From a virus (Duplodnaviria > Heunggongvirae > Uroviricota > Caudoviricetes), in IMG/VR virus record IMGVR_UViG_2554235189_000004, positions 1-14,788 of that record: a stretch of 14,788 bases of DNA. The stretch is one strand, 5' to 3'. The notes under the pieces are model-generated. The model was not told the DNA's origin and ran no database searches. It saw only the letters and a program-made list of their open reading frames with translations. Positions 6,261 to 6,332 of the stretch are shown here, one piece after another; the first letter of the stretch is position 1; the number at the start of each line of letters is the position of its first letter. The position numbers and the translations under genes are program-made.

Positions 6261-6332
6261 ATTTCTATTTCTATTTCTATTTCTATTTCTATTTCTATTT
6301 CTATTTCTATTTCTATTTCTGTTTCTATTTGT
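6261..6332. repeat. Hexanucleotide microsatellite: (ATTTCT) x10 perfect (6261-6320) plus two degenerate units
   Basis: Direct reading: 'atttct' repeated 10 times, then 'gtttct','atttgt'. Intergenic, about 318 bp upstream of the minus-strand cargo ORF start and about 190 bp upstream of the HNH gene. Confidence 0.95.

Follow-up and report, generated by a model that had tools for sequence, protein, structure and literature searches.

The O157-9 hexanucleotide repeat in an intact prophage island: a slippage-prone and probably neutral VNTR

The window (the whole stretch of 14,788 nucleotides analysed here) is the early-right (nin) region of a lambdoid prophage and carries a tandem array of the hexanucleotide ATTTCT in a non-coding spacer. 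Judged by its unit, its flanks and its primer sites, the array is the MLVA locus O157-9 of Escherichia coli O157:H7, an already known locus that is also called VNTR-9, TR1 and Vhec4. It is likely, in our estimate, that the array is a slippage-prone VNTR which is found here in its intact form, is truncated by IS30 in O157:H7 and is probably neutral. The array would gain or lose whole 6-bp units by slipped-strand mispairing during replication. In the intact locus it occupies non-coding DNA of a 2.85-kb island, between the gene of a 590-aa protein (the cargo gene) and an HNH endonuclease gene, whereas in O157:H7 an IS30 insertion 15 bp to its left would have removed the cargo side and left the array behind.

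An earlier note on this DNA had described ten perfect units and two degenerate ones in AT-rich intergenic DNA, between a divergent cargo ORF and the HNH and ninG genes, and the description holds in each of these respects (Table 1). A regular-expression count and TRF (6260-6330, period 6, 11.8 copies, 96% matches, score 135) both return the tract, the ORF coordinates place it between the named genes, and the G+C content is 30-41% over positions 3501-7000 against 47% for the whole window. The perfect part of the tract measures 60 nt, whereas 300 dinucleotide-preserving shuffles, made from the window or from the island alone, yielded no perfect tandem array longer than 18 nt; chance does not account for it.

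Table 1. Positions of the repeat array and of the features around it in the window
Feature	Coordinates	Strand	Remarks
AT-rich 2.85-kb island (moron)	~3659..6511		VNTR inside; between the ninE 3' end and the HNH gene
Cargo gene, 590-aa protein	4171..5943	-	TTG start, preceded by AGGAGG
Best predicted sigma-70 promoter of the cargo gene	6073..6044	-	TTGACG, 18 nt, TG-n-AATAAT; start predicted near 6037
ORF across the array, IS frame (60 aa)	6192-6374	+	overlaps the FL-frame ORF; judged non-coding
ORF across the array, FL frame (87 aa)	6202-6465	+	overlaps the IS-frame ORF; judged non-coding
15-bp left flank GTGGTCTGTTTTAAT	6246..6260		common to the O157:H7 locus
VNTR core, perfect (ATTTCT)10	6261..6320		regular-expression count
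Two degenerate end units	6321..6332		GTTTCT (6321-6326) and ATTTGT (6327-6332); 12 units in all
Island-specific right flank	6333..6511		contains the TR1 primer site; homology to island-less phages starts at 6512
PulseNet VNTR-9 forward primer GCGCTGGTTTAGCCATCGCCTTCTTCC, exact site	6514..6540	-	across the HNH start codon; primer from PMC3321953
HNH_3 + AP2 endonuclease gene	6525..7091	+	homing-endonuclease type; first gene right of the island
ninG	7006-7668

To the left of the array the gene order is replication protein P, NinB, Dam, NinE and the minus-strand 590-aa ORF; to the right it is HNH_3+AP2 endonuclease, NinG, phosphatase, Q, tRNA, TerB-domain protein, SASA/DUF6645 esterase and lysozyme. 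The edges of the island were located by comparison with the island-less prophage of strain 14EC007, on the left at ~3659, inside the 3' end of ninE, and on the right at 6511/6512, directly ahead of the ribosome-binding site of HNH; the island is likewise absent from Sakai Sp15. The array lies upstream of the cargo gene, beginning 318 bp from its start codon, and stops 179 bp short of the right edge. The endonuclease to the right of this edge resembles a free-standing homing endonuclease, and its gene is interrupted by IS1203 in strain ERL04-3476. Of 5426 complete E. coli genomes, 519 have the island-specific right flank. The cargo side is intact in 245 of the 519, among which the serotypes seen include O111, O145 and some O157; about 270 carry the array without the cargo gene, and all of those inspected were O157:H7 with IS30. 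The closest deposited phages to the window are the Stx1 phages SH2026Stx1 and AU6Stx1, and no stx genes occur in the window between Q and the esterase. The DNA downstream of Q (8816-10363) includes a tRNA with anticodon CAT (9129-9204), a TerB-domain ORF (9424-9885) and a member of the sRNA family STnc100 (10057-10223). At the other end of the window a period-20 repeat, TCCCCTAAAACGAGGGAAAA (62-117, 2.8 copies), occupies part of the ORF preceding P and is similar to the ori iterons that the annotation of AU6Stx1 places in its O gene.

The identity of the array with the typing locus is given by matching units, primer sites and flanks. TR1, Vhec4, O157-9 and VNTR-9 are names of one locus (PMC3768571, PMC3321953), labelled 'Z3935/Z3936' for EDL933 in PMC3321953, and the published TR1 unit, the 6-bp AAATAG (PMC2246123), matches as the rotated reverse complement of ATTTCT. 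The TR1 primer ACTGCATGATAAGCCTCAGG has an exact match on the minus strand (6403-6422), and the PulseNet VNTR-9 forward primer likewise has an exact site. The partner primers, CACTGAAGCCTGTTCCGTTC and GTGTCAGGTGAGCTACAGCCCGCTTACGCTC, have no site in the window when up to 3 mismatches are allowed. Both match O157:H7 strain NE1092-2, within a truncated IS30, where they flank the same array and right flank. The terminal inverted repeat of this truncated element stops 15 bp left of the array, abutting the equivalent of 6245/6246, and from there the GTGGTCTGTTTTAAT flank and the entire right flank are identical between NE1092-2 and the window. The O157-9 locus is intact in the window, presumably in its ancestral form; by the same comparison, the O157:H7 locus is a remnant of the island truncated by IS30, with the cargo gene included in the loss.

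The array is thus orthologous in the two settings, yet only the IS30-truncated form can yield the defined amplicon, because the partner sites lie in IS30. For the same reason, the standard assay would return a null allele for a prophage whose island is intact, a practical point that concerns 245 complete genomes. Public-health laboratories have counted this repeat for about twenty years for O157:H7 fingerprinting, with routine surveillance since about 2003-2006. As a discovery the array therefore matters little, since typing practice had already established the hypervariability of the tract.

Copy number was compared across isolates, as the earlier note had proposed, and proved to be hypervariable rather than invariant. 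Units were counted directly in 37 loci, drawn from two phage genomes, E. coli chromosomes, two E. albertii prophages and 28 IMG/VR contigs: the array ranges from 5 to 24 units in 14 allele sizes, and every length is a multiple of 6. In complete genomes BLAST spans of 764-872 nt for an 801-nt query correspond to about 6-24 units, the conversion of span to units having been verified on H70 and H42; by the same spans the O111:H8 strains alone range from about 7 to 24 units. Interrupting units were also found (ATTTCC, GTTTCT, ACTTCT, AATTCT and ATTTCA), some of them duplicated (ATTTCC three times, GTTTCT twice), which is exactly what slippage would produce. Two haplotype families can be told apart by the last unit, which is ATTTGT in one and GTTTGT in the other; lengths are wide-ranging in each, which indicates that the changes are recurrent. 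The O157 strain 644-PT8 carries two arrays in different prophages, an IS30 form of 9 units and an intact-island form of 12 units, and two differing arrays in one genome are relevant to in-silico MLVA from whole-genome sequences. The T run directly after the array (6338-6343) shows a second, smaller length polymorphism, with T6 in most loci and T7 in 3 of the 37.

Published counts agree with this picture: 202 German O157 isolates had 6-23 repeats in 15 alleles, with a diversity index of 0.90 and 31.7% null alleles (PMC3321953). In serial passage the locus mutates at about 1.3e-4 per generation by single-unit insertions, and these loci show an insertion bias (PMC3777172). Whole-unit changes together with these passage experiments point to slippage as the mechanism; the proneness to slipped-strand mispairing that the earlier note had anticipated is supported by our counts and by the wide variation among isolates in both studies (PMC3321953, PMC3777172). 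The repeat is hypermutable and changes reversibly by whole units, as a contingency locus does. Alleles of fewer than 5 units are missing from a set of more than 100 loci, and both E. coli and E. albertii have retained the array. This 5-unit floor and the retention in two species could reflect selection to keep a tract, but the insertion bias (PMC3777172) can explain the lack of short alleles as well.

The cargo gene encodes a 590-aa protein with no sequence relative in Pfam, PADLOC or PDB and with only 'hypothetical' database names. Its AlphaFold model is poor (pLDDT 40.7) and all-helical. The first ~125 residues, modelled with very low confidence and with two short helices as their sole regular structure, are S/T-rich and contain a duplicated LTLNDFLDN motif. 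Family members turned up in E. coli, E. albertii, Salmonella and Providencia alone, and a chromosomal paralogue in E. albertii (71% identical) adjoins nleF; on this distribution and this neighbour, the protein may be a secreted effector, as a type III candidate. The Salmonella homologue (48-51% identical) lies between cdd and sanA. No tandem repeat occurs upstream of the E. albertii islet copy or of the Salmonella copy, nor within the only 266 nt visible upstream of a 58%-identical homologue on short contigs. Among the cargo homologues scanned, the array is kept only in the E. albertii copy that occupies the same prophage island, where the protein is 93% identical and the array has 7 units.

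The best promoter of the cargo gene (Table 1) was agreed on by a consensus scan and a weight-matrix scan, and is a prediction only, of a kind that is unreliable in AT-rich DNA; in most relatives its -10 element reads AATAAC. The predicted -35 element and the start of the array upstream of it are 188 bp apart, and relative to the predicted start site the array covers about -224 to -295. A perfect 12-bp palindrome, TAACTATAGTTA (6081-6092), conserved in E. albertii, precedes the predicted -35 by 8 bp and could be an operator. Neither scan predicted a comparable leftward promoter within the array or to its right, so that the tract is probably untranscribed in that direction. An Hfq site of the (ARN)n type on the minus-strand RNA, where an (ARN)23 run occurs, was considered and rejected, as no leftward promoter is predicted to its right.

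Apart from the neutral reading, the array could act on the cargo promoter from a distance. The number of units would alter the distance and the helical phase between this promoter and an upstream element or an H-NS-type nucleation region, resulting in phase variation or a rheostat with cell-to-cell variation. Such a role would suit a hypermutable tract that occupies intergenic DNA 5' of the cargo gene within the same island. The island has 30-40% G+C, and low-G+C DNA is the kind silenced by nucleoid proteins. Distal repeats have precedents in nadA (PMC2791445) and in H. pylori sabA (PMC4081817). However, the nadA repeat lies at -55 to -85 (PMC2791445), much nearer than the ~-224 to -295 predicted for the array, on whose far side there is no conserved operator-like element and inverted repeats to the right are only weak. 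The homologous genes scanned elsewhere do without the repeat, and every unit number from 5 to 15 occurs, with no preferred phase apparent. Hypervariability is also equal where the cargo gene has been deleted: the array is long and variable in cargo-less O157:H7, which argues that its hypervariability is mutational and not maintained by selection on the cargo gene. The suggestion of the earlier note that cargo expression might be phase-variable thus finds no support in the distance of 188 bp to the predicted -35, in the repeat-free homologues or in the variation seen in O157:H7, and on these comparisons phase variation is unlikely. The O157:H7 remnant is nevertheless uninformative on the role of the array in an intact island. 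There, the chance is slim that array length tunes a neighbour, either the 590-aa gene via distal nucleoid-protein silencing or, in Stx-type phages, read-through towards the Q antiterminator; if it did, a rare repeat-driven expression rheostat of E. coli would be hidden in a routine typing marker. From the position of the array and the comparison of loci we infer that it is selectively neutral and has no regulatory role.

Two further readings were considered. In the early (pR) RNA the G-free, unstructured (AUUUCU)n might serve as a Rho loading site or pair with the HNH ribosome-binding site, modulating read-through or translation towards HNH, ninG and Q. The tract is indeed predicted to be unstructured, has the highest C:G of any 78-nt segment (12 C, 2 G) in an untranslated stretch of ~2.9 kb, and is followed by a weak hairpin with a T-rich tail at 6381-6397. 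Its composition fits a rut site (70-80 nt unstructured, with C far in excess of G) but is not distinctive: C makes up only ~15%, and other segments contain more. Moreover, all of the RNA antisense to the cargo gene goes untranslated, leaving it accessible to Rho with or without the tract, and N-modified polymerase resists Rho. As to pairing, the minimum-energy fold of the rightward RNA joins the last units to GGAGGAAGAAGG, with 6310-6322 opposite 6509-6521 in the purine-rich HNH ribosome-binding site (ACGGAGGAAGAAG); at z = +1.66, however, this fold, like another at +1.3, is no better than those of shuffles. No Rfam family matches at the array, and a role in this transcript is very improbable. 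Coding potential is the other possibility, with the array encoding a stretch of a small, length-variable protein, be it a hydrophobic (FL)n peptide or the (IS)n ORF. The array is open in all three forward frames, its 6-nt unit preserves the frame, RefSeq (PGAP) annotates the IS-frame ORF in many genomes, and VNTR-9 has been listed as 'inside ORF' (PMC3321953). Against this, the E. albertii locus has lost 1 bp upstream of the array, which exchanges the frames; its FL frame meets a stop just past the array through a CGA>TGA change, and its IS frame lacks an ATG. In O157:H7, IS30 has taken the place of both start codons. Neither ATG is preceded by a convincing Shine-Dalgarno sequence, and no family matches. 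Among the matches listed, PGAP calls the ORF only for alleles of at least 12 units (span of at least 800 nt) and never for shorter ones. Because 'hypothetical protein' appears only over long alleles, the call depends on length, and by this pattern the RefSeq protein over the array is an annotation artefact. A coding role is accordingly remote in the extreme, and the view of the earlier note that the SISISI… and FLFLFL… frames are artefacts of the repeat is supported, given that the ORFs are unconserved and their annotation length-dependent. Translational phase variation was rejected separately: a 6-nt unit is a multiple of 3 and cannot shift the reading frame, and the ORFs are unconserved.

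The neutral VNTR in a prophage island can be set beside several known systems. Lambdoid nin-region morons are additional genes that sit in the early right operon under a promoter of their own, and the island agrees with them in having a reverse-oriented AT-rich gene with its own predicted promoter, located between ninE and ninG and missing from sister phages. To our knowledge, a long perfect hexanucleotide VNTR is not usual within a moron. The (ATCTTTC)n repeats of H. influenzae hmw1A/hmw2A (PMC12721329, PMC8262952) are similarly pyrimidine-rich, with a unit of 7 rather than 6 nt and graded copy number, and lie upstream of a virulence-associated gene. In contrast to the array, the hmw repeat forms part of the transcribed 5' UTR, where base pairing with a G-rich arm gives an RNase III hairpin; the cargo transcript, as predicted, begins ~224 nt downstream from the array, for which folding predicts no stable structure. 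In N. meningitidis nadA, a (TAAA)n tract (PMC2791445) is likewise an AT-rich short repeat upstream of the core promoter, whose copy number changes at ~1e-4 per generation. This tract, however, lies at -55 to -85 between mapped NadR operators, with an IHF site, whereas the array is at least 188 bp from the predicted -35 and lacks known flanking operators. The closest likeness is to O157-9 of O157:H7 itself, which shares the array, the 6-bp unit, the 15-bp left flank, the right flank, the HNH neighbour and the copy-number range, and differs in that the left side of the window is the intact island with the 590-aa gene and not an IS30 remnant.
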